52,779 nt of DNA from Marinilabiliales bacterium (GTDB lineage Bacteria; Bacteroidota; Bacteroidia; Bacteroidales; DTU049): positions 1-52,779 of the forward strand of contig PKSX01000017.1 of the NCBI GenBank assembly GCA_002869435.1. Direction: 5' to 3'. The notes beneath the pieces were generated by a model that saw only the letters and a program-made list of their open reading frames with translations, was not told the origin of the DNA and did no database searches. Below are positions 2 through 46,648 of the stretch, one piece after another (position 1 is the stretch's first letter; every line of letters begins with the position of its first letter). The translations under genes and the position numbers were made by a program.

Positions 2-712
2 GACGGTTCAGCCGATGTTACGGTATCAGGAGCCACCAGTCCCCTAACCTATACATGGTCCCATGACCCCGGTCTAAACAGTCCGGGTGCAACAGGGCTT
101 AGTGCAGGTACTTATACCGTAACCGTTGATGACGGCACGTGTCAGGAGATAATTGACATTACTGTATATGCAATTCCCGGTCCGATAGCAGGATTTATGG
201 TTAATCCAACTCAGGCAGATATCGAAAATGCCTTTTTTATGGTAACTGATTTAAGCATCGGCGCCACAAGCTGGTTGTATTATTTTGATGATGGTTGCTC
301 AAGTACCATGCAAAACCCAACTCATGAATACACATCTGAAGGAGACTATACTATCACACAATATGTTTACGATGATTATGGTTGTGTCGACAGTACGACA
401 ATGACGGTTTCTGTTGAAGGCTTATTTGCATTTTATATTCCCAATGCATTCAGTCCCAACGGAGATAACATAAATGACTATTTTCTTCCAAAAGGAATTG
501 GTATAGATGCAGATACCTGGCAAATGAGAATTTATGACCGCTGGGGAAGCACTGTATTTGTTAGTACCGACATTAATCAACCATGGGATGGCATGTATGT
601 ACTCGAAGATATAGATAAAACACCTACAGCAGTATTCGGATATTTCATTACATTCAGGACTGAATCAGGTCTAATTATGGAGTATTACGGACATGTAACT
701 ACACTCCCTTAG
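2..712 (+). CDS. 5'-truncated T9SS type-B (gliding motility-associated C-terminal domain) protein with SprB-like repeat and PKD domain; array paralog 1
   Basis: Frame is open from position 2 (DGSADVTVSGATSPLTYTWSHDPGLN...) into the listed ORF. C-terminus [15 protein letters not shown]...[10 protein letters not shown]...WDG is a CHU_C/type-B CTD. Confidence 0.9.
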   Translation, partial: DGSADVTVSGATSPLTYTWSHDPGLNSPGATGLSAGTYTVTVDDGTCQEIIDITVYAIPGPIAGFMVNPTQADIENAFFMVTDLSIGATSWLYYFDDGCSSTMQNPTHEYTSEGDYTITQYVYDDYGCVDSTTMTVSVEGLFAFYIPNAFSPNGDNINDYFLPKGIGIDADTWQMRIYDRWGSTVFVSTDINQPWDGMYVLEDIDKTPTAVFGYFITFRTESGLIMEYYGHVTTLP

Positions 713-747
713 ATTACGAAATATTTATACAATATCCCATTTAACTT

Positions 748-780
748 TTTGGTTTTTAAGCCATCAAAGTAATATATTTG
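748..780 (+). promoter_or_regulatory. Bacteroidota primary-sigma promoter (-33 TTTG / -7 TAnnTTTG)
   Basis: TTTG at 748-751, 21-nt spacer, TATATTTG at 773-780; same layout before the next two paralogs. Confidence 0.75.
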
Positions 781-899
781 GGTATTAATTCCTTGAAAAG
801 GTTCTTTAAATTAATTAGTTTTGGAAACTTTATCCACAGAATCCATTATTAATAAATGAAGTCATAATAAGAAATTAGCACCCACCTAAAGCTGTTTTT

Positions 900-3728: not shown

Positions 3729-3768
3729 TTCAACATTTCATTGTGACAAATTTCTTTTAACTTTTTGG
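3717..3768 (+). repeat. 52-bp exact direct repeat, copy 1 (gene end, intergenic region and -33 element)
   Basis: ACATTACCGTAATTCAACATTTCATTGTGACAAATTTCTTTTAACTTTTTGG is identical to 6060-6111. Confidence 0.9.
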
Positions 3769-3796
3769 TTTCAATACTATCAAAGTAGTATATTTG
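3764..3796 (+). promoter_or_regulatory. Bacteroidota promoter for paralog 3
   Basis: TTTG at 3764-3767, 21-nt spacer, TATATTTG at 3789-3796. Confidence 0.75.
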
Positions 3797-3875
3797 GATG
3801 ATAATTCCATTTATGGGTTCTTCGATGAATATTCCGGAACCGAAAAATGAAATTACACTCACTAATGCTATTTTT

Positions 3876-6071: not shown

Positions 6072-6111
6072 TTCAACATTTCATTGTGACAAATTTCTTT
6101 TAACTTTTTGG
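6060..6111 (+). repeat. 52-bp exact direct repeat, copy 2
   Basis: Identical to 3717-3768. Confidence 0.9.
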
Positions 6112-6139
6112 GTTCTACACCATCAAAGTATTATATTTG
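6107..6139 (+). promoter_or_regulatory. Bacteroidota promoter for paralog 4
   Basis: TTTG at 6107-6110, 21-nt spacer, TATATTTG at 6132-6139. Confidence 0.75.
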
Positions 6140-6156
6140 GGTAATATTTGCGCCTT

Positions 6157-9100
6157 ATGATACGAAATACCGGTATTTTCATTGTACTGGTAAGTTTTAT
6201 ACTTACCGGTAGTCCATTATTTACATTTTCTCAGACTTCAGTAATAGTCGATTCGTGTTTTTCCACTACATCACCGGGTCATCCCTTTCCGGGTTCAACG
6301 GATATTTATAACACAAGTTCTGCTGATGTTGCTGAATGGACCGGAAGTGCCTGGACAGGCCAATGGTCTCATGCAAACGTAACACTCGCCCCACCTTGTA
6401 CGCCAACAGGAAACTGCAGGGCATTCTGGATTGGTGCCAGCTCGGGGTGGACTACCGTAGGAGAAGGTTTTGGACTTAGACTCAATAATCCCCTTGTAAC
6501 CGGTGTAAGCTATTCATTTACTTTCACATATGTTAGTCACGGAACTGCCAGTACCGGTAGTTTTGCCCCAAATGTATATACCAATACAAGTGGTGCTTTA
6601 GGGGGGGCTAATTCACTTGGAGCATTACCTGCAGCCGGGACTGCATGGACTACAAATACGTTAACGTTTACAGCATCTGCTGCACAAAATGGTGATAATT
6701 GGATTATACTGCATACAGGCACTTCAACAGGGTCGGGAATGGTATTGTCACAATGTTGCTGTACGGTTGTCAACCCCAACTCAGTTACTGCAACAGCCAC
6801 TCCATCCACTATCTGTGAGGGTGAATCAAGTACATTGAATGCTACTGCCGGATTAGCTGGATCAACTTATACATGGAGTACAGGAGCAACAGGATCTAGT
6901 ACTACTGTTAGCCCTACAACCACAACAACTTATACAGTAACAGTTGATGACGGTGGACAGACTGCAAGTACATCTGTTACCGTAACGGTAAATCCTCTAC
7001 CTACAGTTACTGCCACTGCGTCGCCATCAAGTATTTGCACAGGGAATAGTTCAACACTTACAGCCAGTGGTGCAAGCACATACAGCTGGAGCACAGGAGC
7101 AACAGGGTCTAGTATCTCAGTTAGTCCGGCTTCTACCACAACCTATACTGTTACAGGTACATCTGCTGCAGGATGTTCAAATACTGCATCAGTAACGGTA
7201 ACTGTTTCCGCAGTTCCCAATGTCACAGCTACTGCTTCACCGGGAAGTATTTGCCCTGGTGGTAGTTCTACTCTCACTGCAGGAGGCGCCACGACCTACA
7301 CATGGAGTACCGGTGCCACAGGATCACCTATCAGTGTCAGCCCCGGAACAACAACTACGTATACAGTTACAGGGTCATCAGGTCCTGGCTGCTCAAACAC
7401 TGCTTCAGTTGATGTTATAGTAAATCCCGCCCCGACTATTACAGTTGCAGATCAAATCATTTGCGATGGCGAGACAGCCACATTAACTGCAAGTGGAGCT
7501 GCCATATACAGCTGGAGTACAGGAGGATCAAACAGTTCGATATCTGTTTCTCCGTCTAGTACAACAACATACACAGTAACAGGTACAAATGCTGTGGGAT
7601 GTACCGGAACAACAAGTGCAACAGTTACCGTAAACCCATTGCCAAATATCGCCATCTCGGCAAACCCTGCATCTGTATGTCCAGGGAATAATTCAATATT
7701 AACAGCTAGTGGTGGCACAAATTACACGTGGAGTACATCGGGTACAGGTACGAGCATAACAGTAAATCCAACCAGTACTACAACATATAGTGTAACCGGC
7801 ACAGATGCCAATGGCTGTTCAAACACAGCCGACATTAATGTTACAGTATTGCCCGGTCCTGTGGTAACAACAACAGGAGCCACCATTTGCGAAGGTGAAA
7901 CAGCAAATATAACAGCATCCGGAGCGACGAATTATGTATGGGATAACAGTATGACCGGCTCAAGTATTAATGTTAGTCCGACATCAACAACAACATATAC
8001 TGTTTCCGGTACTGACGGGAGCGGATGCACAGGAATTGCAACAGCAATTGTTACTGTAAATCCTCTGCCCACAATTACTTCTACTGATGATGAAATATGC
8101 GAAGGAGAGACTGCAACAATTTCAGCGGCAGGAGGAAATACATATAGTTGGAGCTCAGGCGGCACAAATGCAACAGAAAATGTTTCTCCAACCACAACCA
8201 CAACATATTATGTAACCGGTACAGATGCAAACGGGTGTTCAAACACCTCATCCTCAGTGGTTACAGTAAATGATGCACCATTTATTGGTTCTACAAACAC
8301 AACAGCCGATTATTGTGATTCAGGGAACGGCACAGCCTCTGTCTCCCCAACGGGCGGAACTACTCCATATTTATACAACTGGAGTACCAACCCGGCACAA
8401 ACATCCAATCCGGCTATTGATCTTACAGCAGGAACATATACCGTTACAGTAACTGATGATAACGGGTGCTCTTCTACTGCTTCTGTAACGGTAAGTGCAC
8501 AGGCTGGATTCACACTTAGTTCCAGCAGCGAAGCCGAACATTGTGAACAAATGGACGGAATAGCTCAGGTCATTGTTACCGGAGCAGTTAATCCGGTGAA
8601 TTACTCTTGGTCTCACGACCCTGGGGTAACAACAGATATGGCAACCGGTCTAAGTTCTGGGGTCTACACCGTTACAGTTGATGACGGCCAATGTGTTAGG
8701 ACTATTGATATAACAGTTGGTTCTATGGCGGGGCCGACAGCCGGATTCTTCATCAATCCAACTCAATTAACAATGGATGATCCTACCATTTCAGTTATTG
8801 ACCAATCTGTAGGAGCTACAACATATTATTATGAAACCGGAGATGGGAATTCATACACATCACCAAGCTATCAACACAGCTATGGTATTGACGGCGAATA
8901 TGTGGTAATGCAAATTGTATATGATGATTTTGGTTGTACCGATACCATGTATCAAACAGTAATTGTAAACGAAAGTTTTGCCATATATATTCCTAATGCT
9001 TTCAGCCCGAACGGAGATGGTCGAAACGATTACTGGCATCCTTCAGGTATTGGAATTGATCCAGATACATGGCATATGCGCATATACGATCGCTGGGGGC

Positions 9101-9261
9101 ATACCGTATTTGTGACAACAGATATCAATAAAGCGTGGAATGGTAATTTTAATGGAGACGTAAACGAATGTTCACAGGGAGTATACAGCTACCACATCAT
9201 TTTTAAAACCACAACAGGAAAAGATAAAGAGTATTTTGGCCGTGTAACTAAACTGCCTTAG
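6157..9261 (+). CDS. T9SS type-B surface protein with a different head domain and 7 Ig-like repeats; paralog 4
   Basis: ATG 6157 preferred over TTG 6148; signal peptide; repeats; SprB-like and PKD domains; [13 protein letters not shown]. Confidence 0.88.
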
Positions 9262-20757: not shown

Positions 20758-20897
20758 ATCCTGTTGTTTTTTAATAAGTGTTTTTTACTCCTGTAACTAT
20801 ATTTAAACGATTAGAAATTATCAATTATTATGTTATTATCTACATCTTGTTATTCAAATATTTACTATTTTTAAACAAAACTATTAGAATCATACAA

Positions 20898-21659
20898 ATG
20901 GAAAAATCAAAAAAGTATTTATGGGTCCTCGTTTTAGCTGCACTAAGCGTTGTGGCATTATATTTAATATTTTCAGATGAGCCGAATGAAAATGAAGTCG
21001 ATAATGAACAAGTCTCAGAAACATCAGATAATGAAGAAGAGAACGACTCCCCTTCAAAAACAAGAAAATCCTTAAATAAATCATCCGATGATATTATCCG
21101 TACCGACGGCTCAAATGTTTTATATATTGGTATTGACAATATAGTTTACATCTCTGTTCCCGAAATAGACAATAATGATCTTCGAGTAAGTATAAATCGT
21201 GGATCAATAAGTCCCTCCGACAGTGGAAAATATATTATAAGGGTCCTCAGCGAAGGGACAGTAACTGTGGAAGTGCTGGCTACCCTTGAAAACGGTACAG
21301 AAAAACTTGCTTCTAAAGATTTCATGGTAAAAGACTTACCGCTTCCCAATCTATACCTGGCAAACCAACATGGTGGCGTTTATAGCATAAATCAAATTGT
21401 ATCGTCACCAGTTCTAACAGCAGAGTACGAAAACATCGATTATGATGTGATATACTCTGTAATTAAATACAAATTCACTTATAAAAACAATCTTGGAGAG
21501 AAAACATCAATTCAAGGCCATGGAAACAGATTAAACCCGCAAATAATATCCATAATACAAAGTTCCTCCCCCGGCTCTCAATTTTGGATAGAGAATGTAG
21601 AAGTCAGAGGTCCGACTGGCAATATCTTTGTTAATAATATTGAGATCCAGATACAGTAA
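20898..21659 (+). CDS. Membrane-anchored protein containing only GldM/PorM C-terminal-like domains
   Basis: TM helix, acidic linker, then NVLYIGIDN.V.ISVP, VKDLPLP, FDY-like NIDYDV, GNRL and IENVEVRGP. Start moved to ATG 20898. Confidence 0.7.
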   Translation: MEKSKKYLWVLVLAALSVVALYLIFSDEPNENEVDNEQVSETSDNEEENDSPSKTRKSLNKSSDDIIRTDGSNVLYIGIDNIVYISVPEIDNNDLRVSINRGSISPSDSGKYIIRVLSEGTVTVEVLATLENGTEKLASKDFMVKDLPLPNLYLANQHGGVYSINQIVSSPVLTAEYENIDYDVIYSVIKYKFTYKNNLGEKTSIQGHGNRLNPQIISIIQSSSPGSQFWIENVEVRGPTGNIFVNNIEIQIQ

Positions 21660-27824: not shown

Positions 27825-30800
27825 TTATTTGCTCACTTTTACTATCTTACTCAAATATGAATCCGTTTCATTATATATCTGAATAAAATACACACCTTCA
27901 GATAAATCACTCATATCCAACTCAATACGATTTAGTCCTGAAGGAATTATTTCTGCAGCAACAATTTTTCCCAGATAATCGGAAATCAGGATATTATATC
28001 CTGACACATTCTCACTATTGATATTCACAAAAAATGAAGAATTGAAAGGATTGGGAAACACATCGCAGTTAATGGAATTATTCACACTACAGTTTGCAAC
28101 AGAAACCGGTGAATATGAATATTTCCCATTGAAATCGGTTTGCTTAATGCGATAATATGCTGGAATTGATGAAAGTTGAGGGTTAAGATCACGAAAAGAA
28201 TAGAATTGAGTAGTATTACTGTTACCTGCTCCATCAATTCTTGCAATGGCAGTAAAATCAGTTCCATTGTAGCTTCTTTCGACTGTAAAATAATCATTAT
28301 TGGTTTCAGAAGATGTACTCCAAATCAGTTCAGCGTTTCCTTCAGTACAAACAACATAAAAACTATTGAGTTCAATTGGCAGCAATAAAGGGGTTTCGCA
28401 TTCCATGTTGAAGGTTGGATTATCAGAATACACTGTTAATGAAGGCTGTGACAAAGTGTTGGTAATTGATCCTATATTAAATGAAAATCCAAAAGCAGCC
28501 TGATATGATTGCAATGTTGGAATGGCCAAATTGGTTTGTGTACCACCAGATCCTGTTGTACAGCAATGATATCCGTTATCTTCGTCTATTTTCAAAAAAT
28601 ACTGATTGGTTCCGCTGTTATTGGTAAGACCTGTTACAACCACACCGCCGGTACTCGGACGTGCAATAGCATATCCTTCATCATCCCATGTACCTGTGCC
28701 AACTACATTTCCCCATTGCATGTCTCCACTGGAGTTAATTTTGATGGTGTATACTTCGTCACCACCACCACCTAAGCTGCTGGTAATTCCTGTCATATAA
28801 TAGCTTGTTCCGTCATATGTGGCATCATAGCATTGCTCTCCATTCGCTCCACCATATGCTCTTGCCCATTGCACGCCACCTGCTTCTGTAACACGCATGG
28901 CATAAAAGTCTGAGCTTCCGGCTCCACCTGTACCCAAAATACCAAATACAGTATAATCGCCAACTCCATTCTCAACAACAGAATAGAGATAATCTGATGA
29001 GCCACTTCCCCATTGTCTGTCCCAAACAGCAGTTGATAAATTTGAAGGATCAAGTTTTACCATCTCAAACTGATTATTGCTACCCGATTCATTATGTGTA
29101 CCAACAACCAGATAATACCCATCTGAAGTTTCAATTGCATCTTCAAACTCCTGTGTTTGTGGAAAATATTTATCATCGTAAATTGTGCCATCAGGATTTA
29201 ATATCCAAATTGCACCATCACCATTATTCTGCCCGGCAATAAGGAATCCATTGGCCGGAGTTGCTGATGAGCTTAGTTCAACAATTGAATTCCCTTCCTG
29301 ATCATCACCAAAGTTTTCTACTATTATTGATGACCAAACTTCTGCACCTGATGTATCAACCTTAATAACAAGCAAGTCACGCCAATCGGTGTATCCGACC
29401 ATTACATATCCAGATCCGTCGGCACATTCTACAATATCGTTTACATTATCGGTATTGGCTGTTCCAATTCTTTTAGTCCATCGTGGATTGCCTTCAATAT
29501 CCGTTTTAATTACCGTGAAATCACGACCACCATTCGTAGGTGCATCGCTGCTGTAGGAAGCCATTACATAGCTGTCGCTGCTGGCTTCATGAATTACACT
29601 TCTGCCCCAATACGTATTTGTGCCTTCAATAACAATGGCAAATACATGTGGTAATTCTGCTATGGTACGGCCTGTTCCAGGATTGATCACAGATGGAGTT
29701 TGCGTTCCTCCTACACCATCCATAACAATAGACAGACCACTTGCATCTACCTGATCGCCTAGTGTTGCCGCGACATCAATATCATAAGTGAGCCAAAAAT
29801 AATTAGTACCGGTAGTCAATTGCTGGGTTCCTGTAATATTAATATCGACACCTGTTGTAGCAGGGTTTGCTGAACCAAATATATTGGATGTCAGGAAATT
29901 AGGGTCAGTTCCTGTATAATAAATATTAACAGTTCCGGTTGGAATATCAGCTAATGGAGCTGTTGAACCATCAGTTCTGACCACAAACTGAGTTACGTTA
30001 AATGGAGTTGAAGACCCGCTGGTAACAATTTCGATTCCAATAATTTGCTGATCAACCATACCCAATGAGACATCTGAAGTAACTGCTTGCGTAGTTGTAC
30101 TCGAAACAAATGCCATTGGAGCTAAGCTCCCTACAATAATGGTATAGTCTTCATATGATCCATACGACCCTGTGTAGCAAGGATCTCCTCCAGCGTCATT
30201 ATCAGTTCCACCAATTCTCATCCGATGAGCTCCTACATTAGTACCAACTGTAAAAGAAGCATTCAGTGTAGTTGGATTTGAACTTGTTGATAACCCATAA
30301 TATACCTGTTCACCGGAATCATTAAAATCACCATCATCATTATAATCAATCCATATTTTTGTACCATACGTCCACCCTGTTGAATACGTTATATCCACAT
30401 TGGCAGTAGCTCCAGGTGCAATCTGATTGCTCATTGCTGTGTAATCACCGTAATGATTGGGTTCATCACCTGTTGAATTATCAATTGTTCCGAAAACTAC
30501 TCTTGTTATACCGGTTCCATCAACACTGGTAGGAGCAGGAGTGCAATAAGAAACATTTATGATCTCTCTGTTGCCGGCAGGAGCTGTAGTTGATGGAATT
30601 TGATTTCCCACCCCACCACTCATTTGTATAACATTACATGTAGCATCGACAAGATTTCCCAATGTTGCACCAGCATCGATATCGAAAGCAATCCAGAAAT
30701 AATTGGTCCCGGCATTTAATGTCTGTGTTCCGGCAATATCAATATTTGCACCGGCGGCTGCTGGGTTTGCAAAACCAAATTCGTTGGTCGCTGCAAAGGT

Positions 30801-31529
30801 TGAGCTTGTTCCAGTGTAATATATATGTACACCACCTGAAGAAATATCATTTAGCGGGTCATCGGATCCATTTGTTCTGATTCGGAATCCCGTAACATCA
30901 AAAGGAGACGCAGTACCTGATGTAACAACTTCTATTCGAGCTATTTCTGCATCGCTCGTAACTTTTACAACATCACTTGTATTGGGTTGAGATGCTGTGC
31001 AAGAAACAAATGACATAGCTACCGGGGCAGTTACAGTTAGTGTATAATCTTCAAAACTTGCCCATGTACCAACATAGCAAGGAATTCCTGCGCCACTGGA
31101 ATACCAGCCGCCAATTCTCATTCGATGAGCACCAAGCGTCGCTCCGGCAGGCACAGTAAATGGCACAGCTGTTAGCGTCCCTGTTGATACAGCCTGATTT
31201 GTTACAACCTGTTCTCCTGCATCATAGAAATCTCCATCGTTATTCCAGTCGACCCATATATATGTATAATACGTGTATCCTGTTGTGTATCGAACCTGAA
31301 CATTTGCTGTCGCACCCTGGGCTACTGAATTTGACATTGCAGAGTAGTTGCCGTAATGGCCAGCTTCATCACCTGTTACATTATCAATGGTTCCAAATAC
31401 CACTCTAGTTATTCCTGATCCATCAACACTGCTTGGGGCAGGAGTACAATACTGAGCAAGTAAGTTCTTGTGTGGTAGTAAACCAAATAAGAGAAACAAA
31501 ATGAAAAGCAGTATAATTCTGGAACTCAT
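27825..31529 (-). CDS. T9SS type-A substrate: 2 x (GEVED + BNR-sialidase-N-like Ig domain), beta-propeller, CTD
   Basis: YC.P....GITRV.FG.I.N; IWVDWNNDGDF.D.GE; RMRI...EDY twice; L..GTNYFW..YDI twice; propeller repeats (K.D..G...W); LPIEL...WST.SETNNDYF; VFPNPF...GVYFI. Start at ATG 31529. Confidence 0.88.
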   Translation of the reverse strand: MSSRIILLFILFLLFGLLPHKNLLAQYCTPAPSSVDGSGITRVVFGTIDNVTGDEAGHYGNYSAMSNSVAQGATANVQVRYTTGYTYYTYIWVDWNNDGDFYDAGEQVVTNQAVSTGTLTAVPFTVPAGATLGAHRMRIGGWYSSGAGIPCYVGTWASFEDYTLTVTAPVAMSFVSCTASQPNTSDVVKVTSDAEIARIEVVTSGTASPFDVTGFRIRTNGSDDPLNDISSGGVHIYYTGTSSTFAATNEFGFANPAAAGANIDIAGTQTLNAGTNYFWIAFDIDAGATLGNLVDATCNVIQMSGGVGNQIPSTTAPAGNREIINVSYCTPAPTSVDGTGITRVVFGTIDNSTGDEPNHYGDYTAMSNQIAPGATANVDITYSTGWTYGTKIWIDYNDDGDFNDSGEQVYYGLSTSSNPTTLNASFTVGTNVGAHRMRIGGTDNDAGGDPCYTGSYGSYEDYTIIVGSLAPMAFVSSTTTQAVTSDVSLGMVDQQIIGIEIVTSGSSTPFNVTQFVVRTDGSTAPLADIPTGTVNIYYTGTDPNFLTSNIFGSANPATTGVDINITGTQQLTTGTNYFWLTYDIDVAATLGDQVDASGLSIVMDGVGGTQTPSVINPGTGRTIAELPHVFAIVIEGTNTYWGRSVIHEASSDSYVMASYSSDAPTNGGRDFTVIKTDIEGNPRWTKRIGTANTDNVNDIVECADGSGYVMVGYTDWRDLLVIKVDTSGAEVWSSIIVENFGDDQEGNSIVELSSSATPANGFLIAGQNNGDGAIWILNPDGTIYDDKYFPQTQEFEDAIETSDGYYLVVGTHNESGSNNQFEMVKLDPSNLSTAVWDRQWGSGSSDYLYSVVENGVGDYTVFGILGTGGAGSSDFYAMRVTEAGGVQWARAYGGANGEQCYDATYDGTSYYMTGITSSLGGGGDEVYTIKINSSGDMQWGNVVGTGTWDDEGYAIARPSTGGVVVTGLTNNSGTNQYFLKIDEDNGYHCCTTGSGGTQTNLAIPTLQSYQAAFGFSFNIGSITNTLSQPSLTVYSDNPTFNMECETPLLLPIELNSFYVVCTEGNAELIWSTSSETNNDYFTVERSYNGTDFTAIARIDGAGNSNTTQFYSFRDLNPQLSSIPAYYRIKQTDFNGKYSYSPVSVANCSVNNSINCDVFPNPFNSSFFVNINSENVSGYNILISDYLGKIVAAEIIPSGLNRIELDMSDLSEGVYFIQIYNETDSYLSKIVKVSK

Positions 31530-31539
31530 TTTAACACTA

Positions 31540-31840
31540 TTACTCCTGCATTTGTACATACTCTCTTTCATACTCAACTTGTTTTATGTCAACTTCAACC
31601 AAATAACTTTCAATAGAAAACCACATTCTCAAAAACACCATCTGTAATAACTTCGTTTTTTGCTTTTGTGTGATTTTCAGATATTGGTACTTCAACATAA
31701 TAGGATACCAATGAACTGAAAGATCCATTCTCAAAAGATTCTGATACTTGATCAGAGTCCTGAGAAGATGAAAATCCAAAAGACATTAAAACAAGCACAA
31801 GTGCTGGTAGTAAGAATTTCAACGACACTACATTCTTCAT
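31540..31840 (-). pseudogene. Small secreted ORF (31610-31840), possibly a frameshifted DUF4783-like remnant
   Basis: Signal peptide plus SDQVSESFENGSFSSLVSYY..VEV, reminiscent of DUF4783. An alternative frame runs on to a stop at 31540, 10 nt before the next ATG. Confidence 0.35.
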
Positions 31841-35022: not shown

Positions 35023-36020
35023 AATTCAATCTCGTTTAGAGCTTGTTTAAATCTTAAAATGGCATCTTCAATGCTTCCATAAAAATATGCACCAGATGCA
35101 TTTTTATGTCCGCCGCCATCATAATAGTTTACAGCAATCTGATTAACATTTACGTCCCCTTCAGAACGAAAACTGATCTTAATATATTGCGCACGCTCTA
35201 TAAACAATGCACTGATTTTTATACCCTTAATAGTAAGACCATAGTTTACGATTCCTTCAGTATCCCCTTCCTGATCATTGAACTTCTTCAAATCATCTTT
35301 AGTTAGATACATTACAACAGTTTCCTTGTCGTGTAATACCTCCATCCGGTTTATCAAACTATGACCTAACATACGAATGCGACTCTCGGAAAAAGTATTA
35401 TATACTTTCTGATTGATCTCGAGAACATCAATACCCAAATCAATTAAATCTGCAGTGATGCGGAAAGTACCTGCAGTGATATTTCCATGAAAATAATTTC
35501 CGGTGTCAGTAACAATGCCTGTATATAAACAATCAGCAATATCTTTGTCTAACAACGACTTATCAAATTCTGAAATAAATTCATATACCAACTCGCATGT
35601 TGAAGAAACATCAGTTCTGGCAAATTGAAGCTTAAAAACCTCATCCGGACCCACATGGTGATCAAATAAAATTTTCGGTGCATCAGAAGCTAAAAGAAAC
35701 TCGTCAAGACCTTCCACTCTACGCACCTTATTTAAATCCATAAAAAGAAGAATATCAGCCTCCTCGATACAATCGACAGCTTTGTCCCGTTGCTCATCGC
35801 CAATAATTATCTTGTCGGCATCTTTAAGCCAGGCATAATAATCGGGATAAATATTTGGTACAAGTACTTCTGCTTCATGTCCAAGTTTTTTTAACAGTAA
35901 TTTCATCGCCAGGGCAGAACCCATAGCATCGCCATCAGGATTGGTGTGGGAAATAACACAAAACGATTTTTTATCGCTCGTGAATAAATCCCATATCTGG
36001 TTTTTGTCTGAGTTGTTCAA
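35019..36020 (-). CDS. nrnA: DHH/DHHA1 phosphoesterase (oligoribonuclease/pAp phosphatase)
   Basis: HTNPDGDAMGS, FDHH, LYTGIVTDTG, SFRS, GGGHKNASG. Confidence 0.9.
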   Translation of the reverse strand: MNNSDKNQIWDLFTSDKKSFCVISHTNPDGDAMGSALAMKLLLKKLGHEAEVLVPNIYPDYYAWLKDADKIIIGDEQRDKAVDCIEEADILLFMDLNKVRRVEGLDEFLLASDAPKILFDHHVGPDEVFKLQFARTDVSSTCELVYEFISEFDKSLLDKDIADCLYTGIVTDTGNYFHGNITAGTFRITADLIDLGIDVLEINQKVYNTFSESRIRMLGHSLINRMEVLHDKETVVMYLTKDDLKKFNDQEGDTEGIVNYGLTIKGIKISALFIERAQYIKISFRSEGDVNVNQIAVNYYDGGGHKNASGAYFYGSIEDAILRFKQALNEIEL

Positions 36021-36095
36021 AATTTTGTACTTTTATAATTCGATCTGCAAAAATAATAAAAGCAAAACACTTGTTTCATATAAACCACCTTTAAT

Positions 36096-36515
36096 ATGGC
36101 TGGAAAAATAACTTTCACAATGATAAAACCCAATGCCGTTAAAAACGGACATTGCGGTTCAATTCTGCATATGATCAATGCTGCTGGGTTTTGTTATAAG
36201 GGTCTCAAAATGATAAAAATGACTCCTGGTTTGGCTAAAAAATTCTATGCTGTTCACAAAGACAGGCCATTTTTCAACGATTTAGTAGATTATATGTGCA
36301 CCAGCCCAGTGGTTGTGGCTGCTATCAGTGGAGATAATGCTGTTGAAAGTTTTAGAAACCTCATTGGAGCCACTGATCCCAAAACAGCAGCTCCTGACAC
36401 CATCCGTGGAAAATACGGTGAGTCTATTCAGATGAATGCCATTCACGGGTCAGACAGCGATGAAAATGCAGCCAAAGAAATTGCACTGATTTTTAAAGAC
36501 GAGGAATTGTTCTAA
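36096..36515 (+). CDS. ndk: Nucleoside-diphosphate kinase
   Basis: TFTMIKP, FYAVHKDRPFF, GATDP, NAIHGSDS. Confidence 0.96.
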   Translation: MAGKITFTMIKPNAVKNGHCGSILHMINAAGFCYKGLKMIKMTPGLAKKFYAVHKDRPFFNDLVDYMCTSPVVVAAISGDNAVESFRNLIGATDPKTAAPDTIRGKYGESIQMNAIHGSDSDENAAKEIALIFKDEELF

Positions 36516-36982
36516 CGGCTTTTATATTCAATAAAAGTCTTGTCTTTATAAAACATCACGATTTTATCAAGTTCTTTCGAATTTCCGTAAGAAATTTGTT
36601 CTTCTGAACGAACTACAGAGGGTTCAGGATCTTGATTTCTATCATAAAACTCTTCATTATCAGTTAATTGACTCATATTTGACTCTGATTCCTTTTGTAC
36701 ACTTTCTTCCATCTCCTGAAACAAATCTTTAACAACTGTTTTCTTTTCTTCCGGCTCCTGATTCACATAATCACCCCTTATCATTGCCCCTTTATCAAAT
36801 AGTAACCAGTCAGGACTAAGCTCAGGGTAATGCTCAAGAAGCTTTGTGATAAATGACAAACTCGGATTATTCCGCCCACTTAATAAATGCGATATACCAG
36901 ATCGCTGTACATCTATTTCATCTGCCAGATCTGCTGCAGATAAGTTGTATGAATCCATAAATAGTTTTAAACGATCAATCAT
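36512..36982 (-). CDS. Xre-family HTH protein with acidic linker and a short C-terminal motif
   Basis: LADEIDVQRSGISHLLSGRNNPSL...WLLFDKG.M; C-terminal KIVMFYKDKTFIEY. Confidence 0.88.
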   Translation of the reverse strand: MIDRLKLFMDSYNLSAADLADEIDVQRSGISHLLSGRNNPSLSFITKLLEHYPELSPDWLLFDKGAMIRGDYVNQEPEEKKTVVKDLFQEMEESVQKESESNMSQLTDNEEFYDRNQDPEPSVVRSEEQISYGNSKELDKIVMFYKDKTFIEYKSR

Positions 36983-36989
36983 TTTTTGT

Positions 36990-37358
36990 TTACAAAAGTA
37001 ACAAATAATCCGTTTACTGCTGTAACTTTGTAAACATTACATTTGTAACTCATACTATACTGCTGTGCATACTCAACCATTTCAGTATGAAAAATTACCA
37101 TATATCTGTATATTAGTATCTTATAAGTATCGTAGTAATATTTCAGCAGTTGATTTGAAATCCATACATATTACCTAGAATACACTTTATATAAACATTA
37201 TATCTATCTGAATATATGTTTCATAAATAATATTTCTAGTTGATATCTCTAAGTTTTTATAGAGATAACATAATTCACATAATATAATGCTAGTAATTTA
37301 CATATGTAACCAATATTTTCATTATTCTATCGATTTACAACTGTAATCACAACTGTAA
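36990..37358. promoter_or_regulatory. Array of palindromic TTAC-N4-GTAA sites; the first overlaps the -7 element of the HTH gene
   Basis: Perfect sites at 36990, 37014, 37037, 37298 and 37335; one-mismatch site at 37347. TACTTTTG on the - strand at 36993-37000. Confidence 0.75.
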
Positions 37359-37583
37359 ATTATTGGATTAATCTCAATAGTCGATAAATTTTGCGTTGAA
37401 CTGAACTGATTGGCGGTTAATGGAAAATATTAGAATCTCAGTGAGATAAAATTTACCGAGAAGTTCTGATTCTGGCTCCCCTACTCTAAAATATCTCATA
37501 ATGCAAATTATGAGTTCATAGTTAGATCATGTTTTTCACAACAAACTAAAGTATTTCCAAATCTAATATCAGAGCCGTGTACA

Positions 37584-39512
37584 CTAGAATTCGTTAAGTG
37601 CTTCCCCGATACCTTTATGTACTTCGTACCAGTAATCTATAGCAGCAGTACGTCTGTCTCTTTTAAAATAATCGATCCATCCCAATAAATCCGGATGATT
37701 ATTTCCTTCCACTTCGTGCTTGCGTATGAGAAATGTTTCAATCAGTTCAACATTCTTATATGATTCCCATAGCGAGGAATTATTTCTTGAGTTGATATTG
37801 TATGCGATCTGACTTAAGCTCTTTATAAATTTTTCTTTAATCTCATTTCCCCACAACTCACCAATAACCTCTGGCATCATTTCCTCTGCCCAGTTTCTGT
37901 GAAAGCGACATATTCCGGTATTATCAAGAATCAGTTCCTGTTGAAAACGTTCAGCATTTAGATGTCCCAACTCTCGAGGATGCACGAAATCATTACCGTA
38001 ATACATATAGTATTTGCCCATTATCGGCATGGGTGATAAAACTCCGGGTGTCCAGTACTGATTGGGAACCATATAACCCCTTCGCCCAAAAGATGTATAT
38101 AAAAATGCATCGAGTACTGCGCGTCCTCTGTGTCTGGCAAGCTTCCTGCCCCAACGACGTGCACCCTGGCTGAAATCGAGTATACCTTTTCTCTCTACTA
38201 TTGCATCAAGTATTTCTATTCCCAGTCTGGCATTATGCATGCTATCAGTTTCCACACTGAAGCCTTCACGCCTGAAAATCGGGAACTGGGTTACACCCAA
38301 TTCTTCTTTAGTAATAAGTCCTTTATACAACAAATCCATAAGCCAGGCTAAAACCCCGCCTATACTGATTGCATCGAAGCCCAGAGTATCCGCATGATGA
38401 TTTATTATTTCTGCAGCTCTTTGATCAAAGACTCCAATTAAAGGACCCATTGTTTGATAAGGTTCATAGTCCTTTTTAAACTCATTATTCATCTTTTTAC
38501 ACACTGCTACACAAGGTTCTCCGCATGTCCAGTTTTGCTTTTTCTTTATGGTTTCTTCGTTAAACTGCTTGAGATAGTGTTTCTTAATAAATGTATCATG
38601 CAGCTCAAGTCTTTCATCCTCACTCCAGTGCATGGTGTCATAATTGAAAGCCATAACACGGCCACCCATTGTTGCAAAATTTACTCCAAACGTGCCACCT
38701 GTATCCACTTTAGGATCAAAACGATATTTGGTTGTACTTTCCAGATCCTTTGCTGCAAGTTTTTTCTGGTAACGGTCTTCGAACCATTTGTCGGCAACAC
38801 TTCTGTCGCGAAAATCAACATCCAGAAATGTTCCACCATATATCACAGCTACGATACCATGTTCCTGTACCATCTTTGAACCAAAACCACCACGACCGGC
38901 CCATGTATCGACATAGGTAAGCTCTCCTTTTCGAACCGGAACAGATACAATTCCGGCACAATCAGTACTCGCTGCTGCCGGCCCGGTAGCAAGAATTCTG
39001 AATTCATCTAAATACTCATCTCTGTATTGCTCAGCAACATAATCCATCAAAGAGTAAACACCCATACGCCCTTCTTTCCAGATTGTTTTAATATCGCAGG
39101 GTTCAACCCTAATCTGAATTTCCTCACCATGAACACGATTTAAAATAAGAATCGATGGTTCAGGAGCTTTTCCTGAAATACTCAGCATATCAATACCAAG
39201 ATTATCGAAAACTAATCCCGCACCCCCCATTGATGAAATATAGAAACCTGTCCATGTTGGGCTAAACCCGGTAAAGATCAACCTGTTACTCCCCGGAAAA
39301 ATAGATCCGGCCATTAAACCGGTTCCAATATTTAAACTATTGTAAACAGTACTGTGATACAATCCAAGATCTACCGGCCCGAAATACTCTCCAACCGGAT
39401 ATCTTACTGTTTTATACATTGCCGATGATGAATCTACTACCAGCGCTTTTATATGCGAGTCCAATACTTTCCTGGGTTCCTTTTCTTCCTGTGTCTTCTC
39501 TGTCATATTCAC
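37584..39512 (-). CDS. AOR-family W/Mo-pterin oxidoreductase, GAPOR (glyceraldehyde-3-phosphate:ferredoxin oxidoreductase)-like
   Basis: AGSIFPGSNRL, SSMGGAG, WAGRGGFGS, STTKYRFDPK.DTGGTFG.N, TCGEPC.AVCKK, YEPY, GFDAI..GG, DN.GICRFHR.W. Start may be ATG 39506. Confidence 0.85.
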   Translation of the reverse strand: MNMTEKTQEEKEPRKVLDSHIKALVVDSSSAMYKTVRYPVGEYFGPVDLGLYHSTVYNSLNIGTGLMAGSIFPGSNRLIFTGFSPTWTGFYISSMGGAGLVFDNLGIDMLSISGKAPEPSILILNRVHGEEIQIRVEPCDIKTIWKEGRMGVYSLMDYVAEQYRDEYLDEFRILATGPAAASTDCAGIVSVPVRKGELTYVDTWAGRGGFGSKMVQEHGIVAVIYGGTFLDVDFRDRSVADKWFEDRYQKKLAAKDLESTTKYRFDPKVDTGGTFGVNFATMGGRVMAFNYDTMHWSEDERLELHDTFIKKHYLKQFNEETIKKKQNWTCGEPCVAVCKKMNNEFKKDYEPYQTMGPLIGVFDQRAAEIINHHADTLGFDAISIGGVLAWLMDLLYKGLITKEELGVTQFPIFRREGFSVETDSMHNARLGIEILDAIVERKGILDFSQGARRWGRKLARHRGRAVLDAFLYTSFGRRGYMVPNQYWTPGVLSPMPIMGKYYMYYGNDFVHPRELGHLNAERFQQELILDNTGICRFHRNWAEEMMPEVIGELWGNEIKEKFIKSLSQIAYNINSRNNSSLWESYKNVELIETFLIRKHEVEGNNHPDLLGWIDYFKRDRRTAAIDYWYEVHKGIGEALNEF

Positions 39513-39649
39513 TCATTTGAATCTACAAAGATAATTCAATTTTCATCTATCATCTTTTTTTTAAGATCAATTTTATGTGATATGTATCTAAGTTTCTTTG
39601 TGTAATATAACTTTTTGACGATTTGATATAATACCAGTTGAAAAAAATA

Positions 39650-39681
39650 TTTGCATAATGAGAATATTCTCATTATATTTG
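39650..39681 (+). promoter_or_regulatory. Promoter with a perfect 22-bp palindromic operator in its spacer
   Basis: TTTG at 39650-39653 and TATATTTG at 39674-39681; ATAATGAGAATATTCTCATTAT at 39655-39676. Confidence 0.75.
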
Positions 39682-39706
39682 TAGAGAATTTAAATATCAA
39701 TAGAAT

Positions 39707-39943
39707 ATGCCTCAATTTGATCAAACAGGTCCGAACAGTCAGGGTGCTATGACAGGACGAAAAATGGGCCGATGTACAAATTTCGGACAAGGAAAAAACA
39801 AGGAAGATACTCCACAAAACATGCAGGAAAATGAAATCCGTGTCGAAAACAGGTTTGGTTTGGGACAAGGTATGCGAAGAGGAAATGGCTATGACAGAGG
39901 TCGTGGCCGCGGACGCGGATTCAGAAACCGTGGAGGGTTTTAG
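39707..39943 (+). CDS. DUF5320-family small Gly/Arg-rich protein
   Basis: MPQFDQTGP..QG.MTGR.MGRC; C-terminal GRGRGRGFR. Confidence 0.8.
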   Translation: MPQFDQTGPNSQGAMTGRKMGRCTNFGQGKNKEDTPQNMQENEIRVENRFGLGQGMRRGNGYDRGRGRGRGFRNRGGF

Positions 39944-39951
39944 ATGTGTTG

Positions 39952-39984
39952 AGCCGGATTTCAGAGATGAGTCCGGCTTTTTTT
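39952..39984 (+). terminator. Terminator after the DUF5320 gene
   Basis: AGCCGGATTT...GAGTCCGGCT followed by TTTTTT. Confidence 0.75.
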
Positions 39985-40009
39985 ATACTTTTATTGCATA
40001 TTCTGGTAT

Positions 40010-40525
40010 ATGAATAGCGGCTTAATACATATTTACTCCGGAAACGGCAAAGGTAAAACCACTGCTGCGTTAGGTCTGGCCTTACGTGCTGCCGGAGCAG
40101 GAAAGAAAGTATTGTTCTCGCAGTTTGTAAAAGGACTACCCTACTCTGAGCATAATATCCTTAAACAAATTCCCGGCATTGATCTTAGGATCTTCGGGCG
40201 CGATTGTTTCATTGAGAAAGACCCTGAACCAGAAGACATAGAAGCTGCAAAAAATGGATTTGAGCATATTTCGGAGCATTTGCAACACGATAAATACGAT
40301 ATCATTATATTGGATGAAATCAATATAGCTTTGTATTTTAATTTGCTTTCTGCAAACAAGGTTATTAACGCTCTACAAAGCAGAAAAACTATGGCTGAAA
40401 TTATAATTACCGGTCGTTATCCCCCTGATTCACTCGTAGAAATAGCTGATCTTCATACCGAAATGCTGGAGCATAAACACTATTATAATTTAGGCGTGAA
40501 AGCACGTAAAGGAATAGAATTCTAG
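40010..40525 (+). CDS. cobO: Cob(I)yrinic acid a,c-diamide adenosyltransferase (CobA/CobO/BtuR type)
   Basis: IYSGNGKGKTTAALGLALRAAG, QFVKG, LDEIN, TGR, ARKGIEF. Confidence 0.9.
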   Translation: MNSGLIHIYSGNGKGKTTAALGLALRAAGAGKKVLFSQFVKGLPYSEHNILKQIPGIDLRIFGRDCFIEKDPEPEDIEAAKNGFEHISEHLQHDKYDIIILDEINIALYFNLLSANKVINALQSRKTMAEIIITGRYPPDSLVEIADLHTEMLEHKHYYNLGVKARKGIEF

Positions 40526-40710
40526 GCCAGAAACTTCTAAATGCTTATTTGGCATAAAGCAATTGTATTTGGGAAAGAAAATCAACCAATACTCAATTCA
40601 TATTATCCAATACATCACATCAAAATTTAATGTATTTTTGTAGAAATCTTTTTTTAAAATTCGGTTTTGAGTTATAAAAAGCATACTCAAAATCTATAAA
40701 AAGTTAAAAC

Positions 40711-41241
40711 ATGAAAGATCATCCAGTTTTTAAGAGTCTGATTAAAAACGGACTTTATGCAGGTGCAATTCTTGCTGCATATTTTGTTTTATTGTATTTA
40801 ATCAATCTGAATTTTCTAAAGTACAATCTGATTACTTTCTTGGTTGAAGGTATAGTACTTTTAATTTTTGCTTTTCTCAGTATATCTGAAGCAAGAAAGA
40901 AACTTCCTGACAATCGTATCAAATTCCTGCCGGCATGGCTGGCAGCAGGTGCGGTATTCTTTATGGGACTCTGGATTTTTGGAATTGCCAAGCTTCTAGT
41001 ATTTTTTGTTATCGATCCTGAGTATCTCAGTCGCACAATTGACGAGATTGTTTTGCAGATCATGGAAGTTGCCGATCAGGTTCCCAATGTCGAAGAGTCG
41101 ATAGAAGGTCTTGAGAAGCTTAAAGATCCGATGACCTGGATTCAGCAAATACTTGTATACTACACATTGAAATCAGCTGCTCTGGGAGCATTTATTGCAG
41201 CAGTGGCCAAAAAGAAAAACCGCCTCGAAGAAACGCTCTAA
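40711..41241 (+). CDS. DUF4199-like membrane protein
   Basis: Four TM helices, FFVIDPEY motif, directly upstream of GT2. Confidence 0.65.
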   Translation: MKDHPVFKSLIKNGLYAGAILAAYFVLLYLINLNFLKYNLITFLVEGIVLLIFAFLSISEARKKLPDNRIKFLPAWLAAGAVFFMGLWIFGIAKLLVFFVIDPEYLSRTIDEIVLQIMEVADQVPNVEESIEGLEKLKDPMTWIQQILVYYTLKSAALGAFIAAVAKKKNRLEETL

Positions 41242-44944: not shown

Positions 44945-46648
44945 ATGAAAAAATTACTCACTATTATCATGATATTGGCATTCGCATCTTCAGCAATGCC
45001 TCAAACATGGGGTGCAAAATATCGCGTACAGTTTACCGATAAGAATAACTCACCATATAGCATAAGTAACCCCTCGGCTTTTCTTACACAAAGGGCTATT
45101 GATCGCAGAACCAATCAGGGTATTGCTATTGATGAAACCGATATTCCTGTAAATCAGGCATATGTTGACAGTCTTATTGACCTTGGTGCACAGATATTTA
45201 ATGTTTCCCGATGGTTCAATACAGCTACAATATTTCTTAGCGACACTAATCTCGTTGACGATATTGAAGCTTTAAGTTTTGTAAGTAGCGTTTCCACGAC
45301 TCGGCCATATTTTCAATTGAGAATTAAAAGACCCAGAGATGGTGGCGGAAACTCTTATAATGGCGACATTACACCTGTTAGCTCAGGCATCAAGAAAGTT
45401 AACAGTTATAACCAAAGCGAAAAACGCACGCTATACAGCTACGGTGATGGCTTTAATCAGGCAAACATGATTGGTGTTGATTATCTGCATGGCCTTGGAT
45501 ATAACGGCAGTGGAATGGTGATAGCTGTTTTAGATGCAGGCTTTTACCATGTGAATACACTCCAAATGTTCGACAGTCTGAGAACAAGCGGGCGTTTGTT
45601 GGGTGTGAAAGACTTCGTTACACCTGGCAATGATGTATATCAGGAAAGCACACATGGAATGTCTGTACTTTCTACCATGGCTGGAAATGTTCCCGGGCTT
45701 CTTGTTGGAACTGCACCCGGTGCATCATACTGGTTGCTTAGAAGCGAAGATGCCGGAAGCGAGTATATTGTGGAAGAAGACAATTGGATTGCTGCCGCGG
45801 AATATGCCGACAGCGTTGGAGCGGACGTAATCAATTCTTCACTCGGATATACAGATTACGATGATCCATCACAAAGTTATACTTATGCAGACATGGATGG
45901 AAACACTACTCGTGTAACCCGTGGTGCAGATATGGCAGCAGCAAAAGGAATTCTGGTAGTTAATTCTGCCGGAAACAGTGGAAACAGCTGGTGGAGATAT
46001 ATAGGTGCTCCGGCAGATGCTGACAGCATTTTAACAATTGGTGCAGTTAACTCAATGGGTATTATTGCTTCCTTCTCATCACTTGGACCTTCATACGATG
46101 GAAGAGTTAAACCTACTGTTTGTGCTCAGGGAGAAGGAACCTATGTTGTTAGTTCTGCTGATGGCGTTTATCCCGGCAACGGTACTTCATTCAGCTCTCC
46201 AGTTATGGCCGGTGCAGTTACATGTTTGTGGCAGGCCAATCCAACTTTCTCAAATATGGAAGTGATTGATGCAATTAAACGCAGTGCTAGTCATTACACA
46301 ATACCCGATAGTTTGTATGGTTATGGCATTCCCAACATGGCTGTTGCTCATATGGTATTAAGCGGACAAGAACTACCCGGGTCAGAAGAAGAATATTTCC
46401 TTATGGCAAACCCAAACCCGTTTACTGAGGAGATTGATATCATTCTTTATGCCAATACCCGTGGTACGGCTGTGCTGCAATTACTGGATCAAAACGGCAA
46501 AAAGGTATGGCAGAAAAAAGACTTTGAGTTCATACCGGGATACAACTACTATTTAATGAACGAAGTGAGCTCCTTTAGCAATGGGGTGTATGTACTAAAT
46601 TGTTTTAGTGATAATTTCAAACTCACTCAAAAGCTTATTAAACAGTAA
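44945..46648 (+). CDS. S8 subtilisin-family serine protease with a T9SS type-A CTD
   Basis: IAVLDAGF, HGMSVLS, NSAGN, GTSFSSP catalytic motifs; PNPF...GVY..KLIK C-terminus. Confidence 0.92.
   Translation: MKKLLTIIMILAFASSAMPQTWGAKYRVQFTDKNNSPYSISNPSAFLTQRAIDRRTNQGIAIDETDIPVNQAYVDSLIDLGAQIFNVSRWFNTATIFLSDTNLVDDIEALSFVSSVSTTRPYFQLRIKRPRDGGGNSYNGDITPVSSGIKKVNSYNQSEKRTLYSYGDGFNQANMIGVDYLHGLGYNGSGMVIAVLDAGFYHVNTLQMFDSLRTSGRLLGVKDFVTPGNDVYQESTHGMSVLSTMAGNVPGLLVGTAPGASYWLLRSEDAGSEYIVEEDNWIAAAEYADSVGADVINSSLGYTDYDDPSQSYTYADMDGNTTRVTRGADMAAAKGILVVNSAGNSGNSWWRYIGAPADADSILTIGAVNSMGIIASFSSLGPSYDGRVKPTVCAQGEGTYVVSSADGVYPGNGTSFSSPVMAGAVTCLWQANPTFSNMEVIDAIKRSASHYTIPDSLYGYGIPNMAVAHMVLSGQELPGSEEEYFLMANPNPFTEEIDIILYANTRGTAVLQLLDQNGKKVWQKKDFEFIPGYNYYLMNEVSSFSNGVYVLNCFSDNFKLTQKLIKQ

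Follow-up and report, generated by a model that had tools for sequence, protein, structure and literature searches.

What a tungsten-type oxidoreductase resembling a chiefly archaeal glycolytic enzyme does in a member of the Bacteroidota is the question raised by a gene at positions 37584..39512 (minus strand) of contig PKSX01000017.1 of Marinilabiliales bacterium (assembly GCA_002869435.1); the 52,779 nucleotides of this stretch are called the window below. A preliminary description of the window had likened the encoded protein to glyceraldehyde-3-phosphate (GAP) ferredoxin oxidoreductase (GAPOR), and had proposed either a ferredoxin-generating glycolytic bypass or an uncharacterised bacterial sister clade of GAPOR. 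We find that the protein is a member of the aldehyde oxidoreductase (AOR)/tungsten oxidoreductase (WOR) superfamily, and its sequence places it within the GAPOR-type radiation, outside the clade with assayed members. It adds one more member to an extensive bacterial branch from which no enzyme has ever been assayed; the lineage itself is known, and some sources already label the branch GAPOR. With modest confidence, and judging from its sequence, we take GAP oxidation as the best single guess for its reaction.

The gene is a single long open reading frame (ORF) that encodes, as had been described, 642 aa from a GTG at 39512, with its stop codon at 37584-37586. A public protein (P0001) of 640 aa is 100% identical to it; therefore, the ATG at 39506, two codons downstream of the GTG, may be the real start. 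In a pattern check, each of the ten motifs of the preliminary description was found once and in the predicted order: PGSNRL (residues 73-78), SSMGGAG (residues 93-99), GPAA (residues 177-180), WAGRGGFGS (residues 204-212), STTKYRFDPKVDTGGTFGVN (residues 259-278), TCGEPCVAVCKK (residues 329-340), YEPY (residues 349-352), GFDAISIGG (residues 378-386), YW..Y (residues 486-501), and DNTGICRFHRNW (residues 530-541). The cysteine residues of the protein are at positions 139, 185, 330, 334, 338, and 535, and include the previously noted C-x3-C-x3-C plus distal Cys spacing.

The protein contains an AFOR_N domain (PF02730, E 8.6e-19; residues 58-227, positions 38832..39341, minus strand), which includes R77 of PGSNRL and WAGRGG, aligns with residues 8-227 of 1aor_A, and was found at the same coordinates in the genome search. 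This domain is followed by the recognisable part of an AFOR_C domain (PF01314, E 2e-19; residues 276-460, positions 38133..38687, minus strand), which covers profile positions 28-196 of 385 only. The C-terminal remainder beyond this match is recognised by the GAPOR model only. That model, the archaeal GAPOR equivalog GAPOR_Arch (NF040818), is the only NCBIfam match (E 7.3e-105) and is collinear with the protein (residues 58-634 versus model positions 52-643 of 654). By contrast, the solved chains of AOR, FOR, and WOR5 matched at E 3e-8 or worse and in fragments only; the suggested likeness to GAPOR rather than to generic AOR or FOR was thus borne out. Judged by this full-length collinear match, which includes the GAPOR-specific C-terminal half, the protein belongs to the GAPOR-type lineage in the broad sense.

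The predicted structure gives a consistent picture of the superfamily. The AlphaFold2 model has a mean pLDDT of 93.1 and a pTM of 0.92, and a Foldseek search with it returned nine chains, all of them AOR-family entries (E 1e-18 to 1e-21, all <= 2e-18; TM ~0.6), and nothing outside the AOR family below E 0.01 in a PDB copy that contained no GAPOR structure. Both AFOR domains and this fold make the protein an AOR/WOR superfamily member. The fold is that of P. furiosus AOR, FOR, and WOR5 (1aor, 1b25, and 6x6u), but the identity in the structural alignments is just 15-18%. A profile of 39 sequences was alignable with the solved AORs only over about residues 6-250 and 320-476 of the profile, that is to say, the N-terminal domain and the Glu313 region; the Tyr427/His448 region of AORs could not be aligned by sequence. 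According to passages of a 2025 review, the GAPOR clade retains Thr and Glu as second-shell residues and has no detectable similarity in the Tyr/His region. This clade trait fits the protein of the window, because sequence similarity to the solved AORs is confined to its N-terminal domain and its Glu313 region.

The candidate cofactor ligands could be located along the sequence. The residues C330-x3-C334-x3-C338 of TCGEPCVAVCKK (positions 38499..38525, minus strand) align with C333, C337, and C341 of P. furiosus GAPOR, and C535 aligns with its C549; these four (333, 337, 341, and 549) are the only cysteine residues of the P. furiosus protein. By conservation and by analogy with the family, C330, C334, and C338 are putative [4Fe-4S] ligands, with C535 as the putative fourth ligand of what would be one cluster. 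The latter residue lies in DNTGICRFHRNW (positions 37890..37925, minus strand), which is a signature of the GAPOR-type lineage and a second pterin-type motif. The first pterin-binding-type motif is D375-x2-G378-F-D380 (DTLGFDAI; positions 38367..38390, minus strand), which aligns with DELGLDTI of 1aor_A and whose D375, G378, and D380 are invariant or nearly so. Both D375-x2-G378-x-D380 and D530-x2-G533-x-C535 fit D-x-x-G-x-(D/C), which we take to be the definition of the pterin motif used for AORs. E350 of YEPY (positions 38463..38465, minus strand) corresponds to Glu313, a second-shell residue of P. furiosus AOR, with HMMER aligning query residues 345-351 to 1aor_A residues 308-314, and is invariant in the alignment. 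T274 is also invariant and is no more than a candidate for an equivalent of AOR Thr243.

Comparison with characterised proteins was based on named references obtained by a search with representative P0163, which comprise P. furiosus DSM 3638 GAPOR (P0328), its M. maripaludis homologue (P0377), other Methanococcales, Thermoprotei, and Aquificota. For each of the ten motifs, the alignment shows an almost identical stretch in P0328 and in P0377. We then compared constraint between 120 bacterial-clade and 117 canonical GAPOR sequences, two groups that are each internally close, the canonical one being mostly Thermococcales: 92 positions were >=95% conserved in both, and 85 of them carry the same residue. 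The common residues include the four Cys, E350, K262/Y263, R301, K339/K340, R452, and R536/H538/R539, and most of the 85 are also retained in 20 representatives of the intermediate clades. The basic residues among them (K262, R301, K339/K340, R452, and R536/H538/R539) could, as far as the sequences suggest, bind the pterin phosphate or a substrate phosphate. The seven positions fixed differently in the two clades are, in query numbering, L100/Y, T203/D, G206/A, K213/V, Y291/W, G516/A, and R597/E.

Archaeal GAPOR (NF040818; WOR clade 23, Class I) shares with the protein of the window (i) the domain pair, the length, the four Cys, and the ten motifs; (ii) the loss of similarity to other AORs in the C-terminal half; and (iii) a single gene without WorS. 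Unlike archaeal GAPOR, the branch of the window has as its hosts bioreactor- or sediment-type bacteria, not hyperthermophilic or methanogenic archaea.

This branch is large. Among 8000 candidates scored, 2889 proteins had E <= 0.001; the 120 relatives listed are 61-100% identical, and the JGI name of many of these is 'glyceraldehyde-3-phosphate dehydrogenase (ferredoxin)'. The pattern [DE]NxGxCRFHR, searched in one genome per species, occurred in at least 600 stretches, of which 568 were confirmed by tblastn, so that at least 568 species genomes encode a relative. The best 80 loci are 58-87% identical to the query, are all bacterial, and represent about 14 phyla (20 Bacteroidota, 14 Spirochaetota, 11 Thermodesulfobacteriota, 7 Planctomycetota, 5 Campylobacterota, and 5 Acidobacteriota, with fewer from other phyla); Perlabentimonas gracilis M08_MB is the sole cultured organism among them. 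In an even sample of genomes from the same order, the gene was present at E <= 1e-50 in 25/301 genomes and 22/209 genera, and is thus patchy but ordinary in the order. The impression that a GAPOR-like gene is unusual in Bacteroidota was therefore mistaken, and the enzyme's reputation as mainly archaeal does exist, since two reviews, in the passages concerned, call it largely archaeal. Bacterial metagenome-assembled genome studies, for instance in a passage on Margulisbacteria, label such genes GAPOR by KEGG orthology, and our literature search found, in the collection that it covered, no report on a Bacteroidota or spirochaete enzyme of the GAPOR kind. Horizontal import from archaea was considered and dropped; the nearest relatives are all bacterial, and the GC content near the gene (0.34-0.40) is within the range of the window.

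From these features we propose that the protein would be a cytoplasmic single-subunit AOR/WOR enzyme of the GAPOR-type lineage, 'Class I' in a 2026 WOR scheme (no WorS partner), with one bis-pyranopterin metal cofactor, more likely containing W than Mo, and one [4Fe-4S] cluster held by C330, C334, C338, and C535. It would oxidise an aldehyde to the acid and pass the two electrons, one at a time, via the cluster to soluble ferredoxin. The most likely substrate would be D-glyceraldehyde-3-phosphate, converted to 3-phosphoglycerate without 1,3-bisphosphoglycerate, so that the enzyme would form a non-phosphorylating, ferredoxin-reducing bypass beside the organism's own GAPDH and PGK, with Rnf and the [FeFe]-hydrogenase re-oxidising the ferredoxin. 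The genome of the organism, a 95.8% complete draft of 3.35 Mb in 259 contigs with 1.41% estimated contamination, does encode GAPDH, PGK, RnfC (562 bits), and a 599-aa [FeFe]-hydrogenase; the search for gap and pgk that had been advised thus found both. In addition to the full PGK on contig C174, two contig edges carry partial PGK-like matches (G000:C78:1-993, minus strand, and C248:19-315, plus strand; G000 is this genome), which could represent another gene copy, a variant from a different strain, or slight contamination.

GAP oxidation is preferred because the constrained residues are largely shared with canonical GAPOR and because the branch is highly conserved from phylum to phylum; the identities of 58-87% over about 14 phyla suit a central and unchanging substrate more than a role in broad detoxification. 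Which substrate and metal the enzyme uses, in which direction it runs, and which carrier takes up its electrons are inferences; so is the glycolytic bypass itself, given that the identity to assayed enzymes is ~33%, that the protein falls outside the assayed clade and below the equivalog cut-off, and that its neighbourhood lends no support.

These last points, which weigh against GAP as the substrate, deserve to be set out in full. The first is similarity: the protein is 33.1% identical to P. furiosus GAPOR and 32.3% to its M. maripaludis homologue, these two being 45.5% identical to each other, and AOR and FOR, which are ~40% identical, differ in substrate. The score on GAPOR_Arch is 351.7 bits versus an equivalog cut-off of 1300 bits, so that the protein is not a GAPOR in the strict sense of that model. 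An exhaustive phmmer search over 1.84 billion cluster representatives yielded 575 proteins at E <= 1e-3, of which 160 reached E <= 1e-30; all of the 57 full-length representatives scanned match GAPOR_Arch and none reaches 1300 bits, with P0163 (858) and P0152 (841) as the best.

The second is phylogeny. We built a tree of 50 rows by an IQ-TREE quick search (LG+C20; branch support by SH-aLRT only) and rooted it on the second AOR of the own genome. A clade of 10 rows (SH-aLRT 98), nested in one of 16 rows (96), contains the P. furiosus and M. maripaludis proteins. A separate clade of 29 rows (SH-aLRT 97), outside the clade of characterised GAPORs, contains the query, whose position is preceded by at least eight nested forks of unassayed groups; with its close bacterial relatives, the query forms a 6-row clade (support 100). 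An earlier tree of 58 rows gave the same picture. The root is weak, the outgroup being one long branch, and the tree covers no GOR, P. furiosus AOR, FOR, WOR4, or WOR5; the split into two clades nevertheless holds, because this bipartition is independent of the root. Placement inside the assayed GAPOR clade thus failed, and the other proposal of the preliminary description, an uncharacterised bacterial sister clade, is what the tree displays. For the intermediate groups, the ESM Atlas gives broad hints of a mix of Chloroflexota, Acidobacteriota, Thermodesulfobacteriota, and Hadarchaeota.

The third is biological context. Many holders are Thermodesulfobacteriota, Methylomirabilota, Acidobacteriota, and Planctomycetota, which are not known as classical sugar fermenters. 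In a neighbourhood set of 73 sources (the window plus the 72 of the best 80 loci in which the ORF caller kept the gene), ORF clustering and a Pfam scan of 18 recurrent neighbours revealed no recurrent glycolysis gene, nor a ferredoxin or cofactor gene. Finally, as regards cofactor supply, no MoaE was found in the own genome by Pfam or by a hidden Markov model built from 10 same-order MoaE and run over six frames (best E 0.087); no SBP_bac_11 (ModA/WtpA-type) protein was found in the 95.8%-complete, 259-contig draft; and MoaE is present in just 1/25 holders of the order sample.

The leading alternative keeps the chemistry and the cofactors and changes the substrate, the bacterial branch then being a functionally distinct sister of GAPOR. 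Candidates would be non-phosphorylated glyceraldehyde, an aldehyde derived from an amino acid or a 2-oxoacid, a semialdehyde, or the aldehyde of a different phospho-sugar. The position outside the characterised clade and far under the equivalog cut-off speaks for it, as do the seven positions fixed differently, the spread through non-saccharolytic lineages, and the absence of glycolytic neighbours together with an aminotransferase near the gene in four loci of three phyla; a passage of the 2026 WOR classification (PMC13328260) adds that only 5/92 WOR clades have a defined physiological role. Set against this, canonical GAPOR carries the same residue at 85 of the 92 positions constrained in both groups, the query's ten motifs all recur in the P. 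furiosus and M. maripaludis proteins, the conservation across phyla favours one conserved central substrate, and the aminotransferase link concerns only 4/73 sources. On balance, we regard a substrate other than GAP as possible but rather unlikely.

Far less probable is operation in reverse, in which 3-phosphoglycerate or another acid would be reduced to the aldehyde by low-potential ferredoxin, saving ATP in the gluconeogenesis of autotrophic or acetate-using anaerobes. Such a reduction has a parallel in the AOR of Aromatoleum aromaticum, which, according to a passage of PMC9295118, reduces non-activated acids with low-potential donors, and many holders come from lineages not known for sugar fermentation. 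However, a passage of the 2025 review gives the GAPOR reaction as about -26 kJ/mol in the oxidative direction and unidirectional in vivo, the genome retains GAPDH and PGK for gluconeogenesis, and its ferredoxin sinks suit a fermenter. A cofactor-less or inactive relic, or a non-redox role, for which the MoaE and tungstate-binding protein missing from the draft genome might speak, is very improbable, as nothing is missing from the four Cys, E350, and the two pterin-type motifs, all of which are conserved, MoaC is kept in 25/25 holders, and the MoaE-less MoeA-MoaA-MoaC-MOSC/MoaB cluster also occurs in a one-contig genome, where it is no assembly artefact.

A ferredoxin-linked oxidation of GAP in a bacterium has a counterpart outside the GAPOR lineage. 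The GOR of Caldicellulosiruptor bescii (WOR clade 20, Class II) is described, in passages of the literature, as oxidising GAP with ferredoxin beside GAPDH in a fermentative bacterium, which is the role proposed here for the protein of the window. According to such passages, including those of the 2025 review, bacterial GOR has extra subunits (in C. bescii, a small subunit of the polyferredoxin type), and none of the four second-shell residues of AOR has been lost from it; the gene of the window has no adjacent Fe-S protein gene. The review also terms the GOR and GAPOR clades unrelated, and the gene of the window follows the GAPOR pattern in a comparison made with GOR by description only. A GOR of the C. 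bescii type was ruled out for this protein by the absent adjacent polyferredoxin gene and the unalignable Tyr/His region, again with GOR compared by description.

Bacterial carriers of the same lineage exist also among the Aquificota. The GAPOR-type proteins of Thermovibrio and Balnearium (P0163, P0276, and P0284), two of them named GAPOR by NCBI, are sister to Thermococcales inside the canonical clade; therefore, even the strict GAPOR clade is not purely archaeal. P0163 is 50-54% identical to Thermococcales proteins and scores 858 bits on GAPOR_Arch, and the protein of the window is far more remote.

The supply of the pterin cofactor was examined in the genome and in the order sample. The search for pterin and tungstate genes that had been proposed succeeded for MoaA, MoaC, MoeA, and a MOSC/MoaB fusion, and left MoaE and a tungstate-binding protein unfound in the draft. 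Contig C214 of the own genome carries these genes as a cluster, with the 5' end of MoeA cut off, and at the edge of contig C11 there is another gene, of AOR type; there is one ThiS-family match, and the sole PBP_like_2 protein is PstS-like and located beside three ORFs. Among the 301 genomes, MoaC occurs in 140, AFOR_N in 126, MoaE in 25, and SBP_bac_11 in 179. AFOR_N and MoaC are both present in 118 genomes and both absent from 153, with AFOR_N alone in 8 and MoaC alone in 22. MoaC accompanies the GAPOR-like gene in all 25 holders and is found in 115/276 non-holders, an association whose Fisher p of 1e-9 overstates the case since related genomes are not independent. An SBP_bac_11 protein is present in 21/25 holders.

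AFOR_N and MoaC occur without detectable MoaE in 104/301 genomes. G074, a holder whose genome is one contig, shows the cluster again as MoeA-MoaA-MoaC-MOSC/MoCF (L092:8481-11861), and no MoaE was found in it; because its genome is one contig, the MoaE-less make-up of the cluster in G074 is not an assembly artefact. The MOSC-MoaB/MogA fusion is present in both clusters examined (G000 and G074). A MoaD/E-less cluster with MOSC has been described in Dehalobacter, where the authors, in the passage concerned, suggest that MOSC replaces the synthase, and a passage on Geobacter reports an incomplete molybdopterin synthase. We hold only tentatively the wider proposal that the bacterial branch is a true GAPOR of moderate-temperature bacteria, belonging to the common equipment of anaerobes, with a pterin pathway that in this order lacks recognisable MoaD/MoaE and has the MOSC-MoaB fusion.

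In two holders (G237 and G298), a gene for a ~720-aa AOR is directly followed by wtpA-wtpB-wtpC, whose WtpA proteins score 275.9 and 296.3 bits, respectively, versus a cut-off of 242.75; in G237, wtpABC is followed by a 196-aa ORF and then by MoeA-MoaA-MoaC. In the own genome, C11 ends in the 3' part of the AOR gene, and C214 begins inside moeA. Because G237 and G298 have wtpABC after the AOR gene and the own assembly breaks at that place, its wtpABC most likely lies in the assembly gap between C11 and C214. The pieces of this 'tungsten island', which is kept in the order, are C11:1-1662 (minus strand) and C214:2-3333 (plus strand) in G000, L108 (G237:C51:92500-103000), and L107 (G298:C1:164500-173500).

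If GAP is truly oxidised by this branch, the metabolism of many anaerobes from sediments, bioreactors, and the gut would have to be modelled differently, since one ATP per triose would be exchanged for low-potential electrons, and the predicted H2 yields, Rnf-driven energy conservation, and tungsten dependence would be altered. A tungsten-dependent, ferredoxin-reducing, ATP-forgoing glycolytic step would then be no speciality of archaea or thermophiles. The 'GAPOR' annotation now spreading in pipelines rests on ~33% identity to assayed enzymes and is best treated as unverified, and the cultured holder, Perlabentimonas gracilis, makes the substrate question directly testable. The 104 MoaE-less genomes with an AOR-family gene and MoaC bear on the question of cofactor synthesis.

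The gene is flanked by a helix-turn-helix gene (36512-36982, minus strand) and by a divergent cobA/btuR gene (40010-40525, plus strand). The intergenic region common to both divergent genes (39513..40009) presumably contains the promoter; promoter-like sites upstream were not clearly above those in shuffled sequences (20 versus 12.4 +/- 3.9). The 600-base downstream spacer has only ORFs of 37-41 aa with at most one Cys, and no second-subunit gene. No Rfam match at E <= 0.1 was found across 36000-41000, which argues against a Moco riboswitch there. A terminator-like hairpin with an 11-bp stem and a T-run (39951-39979, plus strand) lies ~30 bases before the cobA/btuR start, where Rfam gave no cobalamin riboswitch. 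Two 151-base contigs from an oligo-dT RNA-seq run of a sediment metagenome (X5) match 37507-37657 (1 difference) and 37742-37892 (no difference), both at the 3' end of the gene and with the remainder of it uncovered; their origin may be a transcript or carried-over DNA. A run of a bioreactor metagenome (X1) is a possible source sample and hence no independent support.

Across the 73 sources, no neighbour family recurred in more than 7, and an ORF with a ferredoxin motif was located within 3 kb in 2. The recurrent annotated neighbours, namely aminotransferases (4 loci), radical-SAM proteins, Hsp33, nitrilase-type proteins, and sensor kinases, are lineage-specific. The aminotransferases are of class I/II and come from 3 phyla (L015:4745-5914, L040:10672-11904, L037, and L044); one of them lies 69 bp upstream on the same strand. 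This recurrence is a weak hint at an amino-acid-derived aldehyde as the substrate in some lineages. The context as a whole fits a stand-alone, single-subunit Class I organisation without a WorS polyferredoxin gene, and gives no help on the substrate.

As the preliminary description had stated, the window is without a pterin-cofactor or tungstate-uptake gene, none having been detected when its 41 ORFs were compared with Pfam. T9SS-type (type IX secretion system) and GldM-like ORFs occupy 2-9261, 20778-21659, 27825-31577, and 44945-46648. Four consecutive large ORFs have CHU_C, PKD, or SprB domains, which are typical of T9SS cargo, and the window also encodes a GldM-like protein, a 1250-aa protein with GEVED, BNR_assoc_N, and Por_Secre_tail domains, and an S8 protease with Por_Secre_tail. 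These cargo domains and GldM-like genes fit the Bacteroidota origin of the window.

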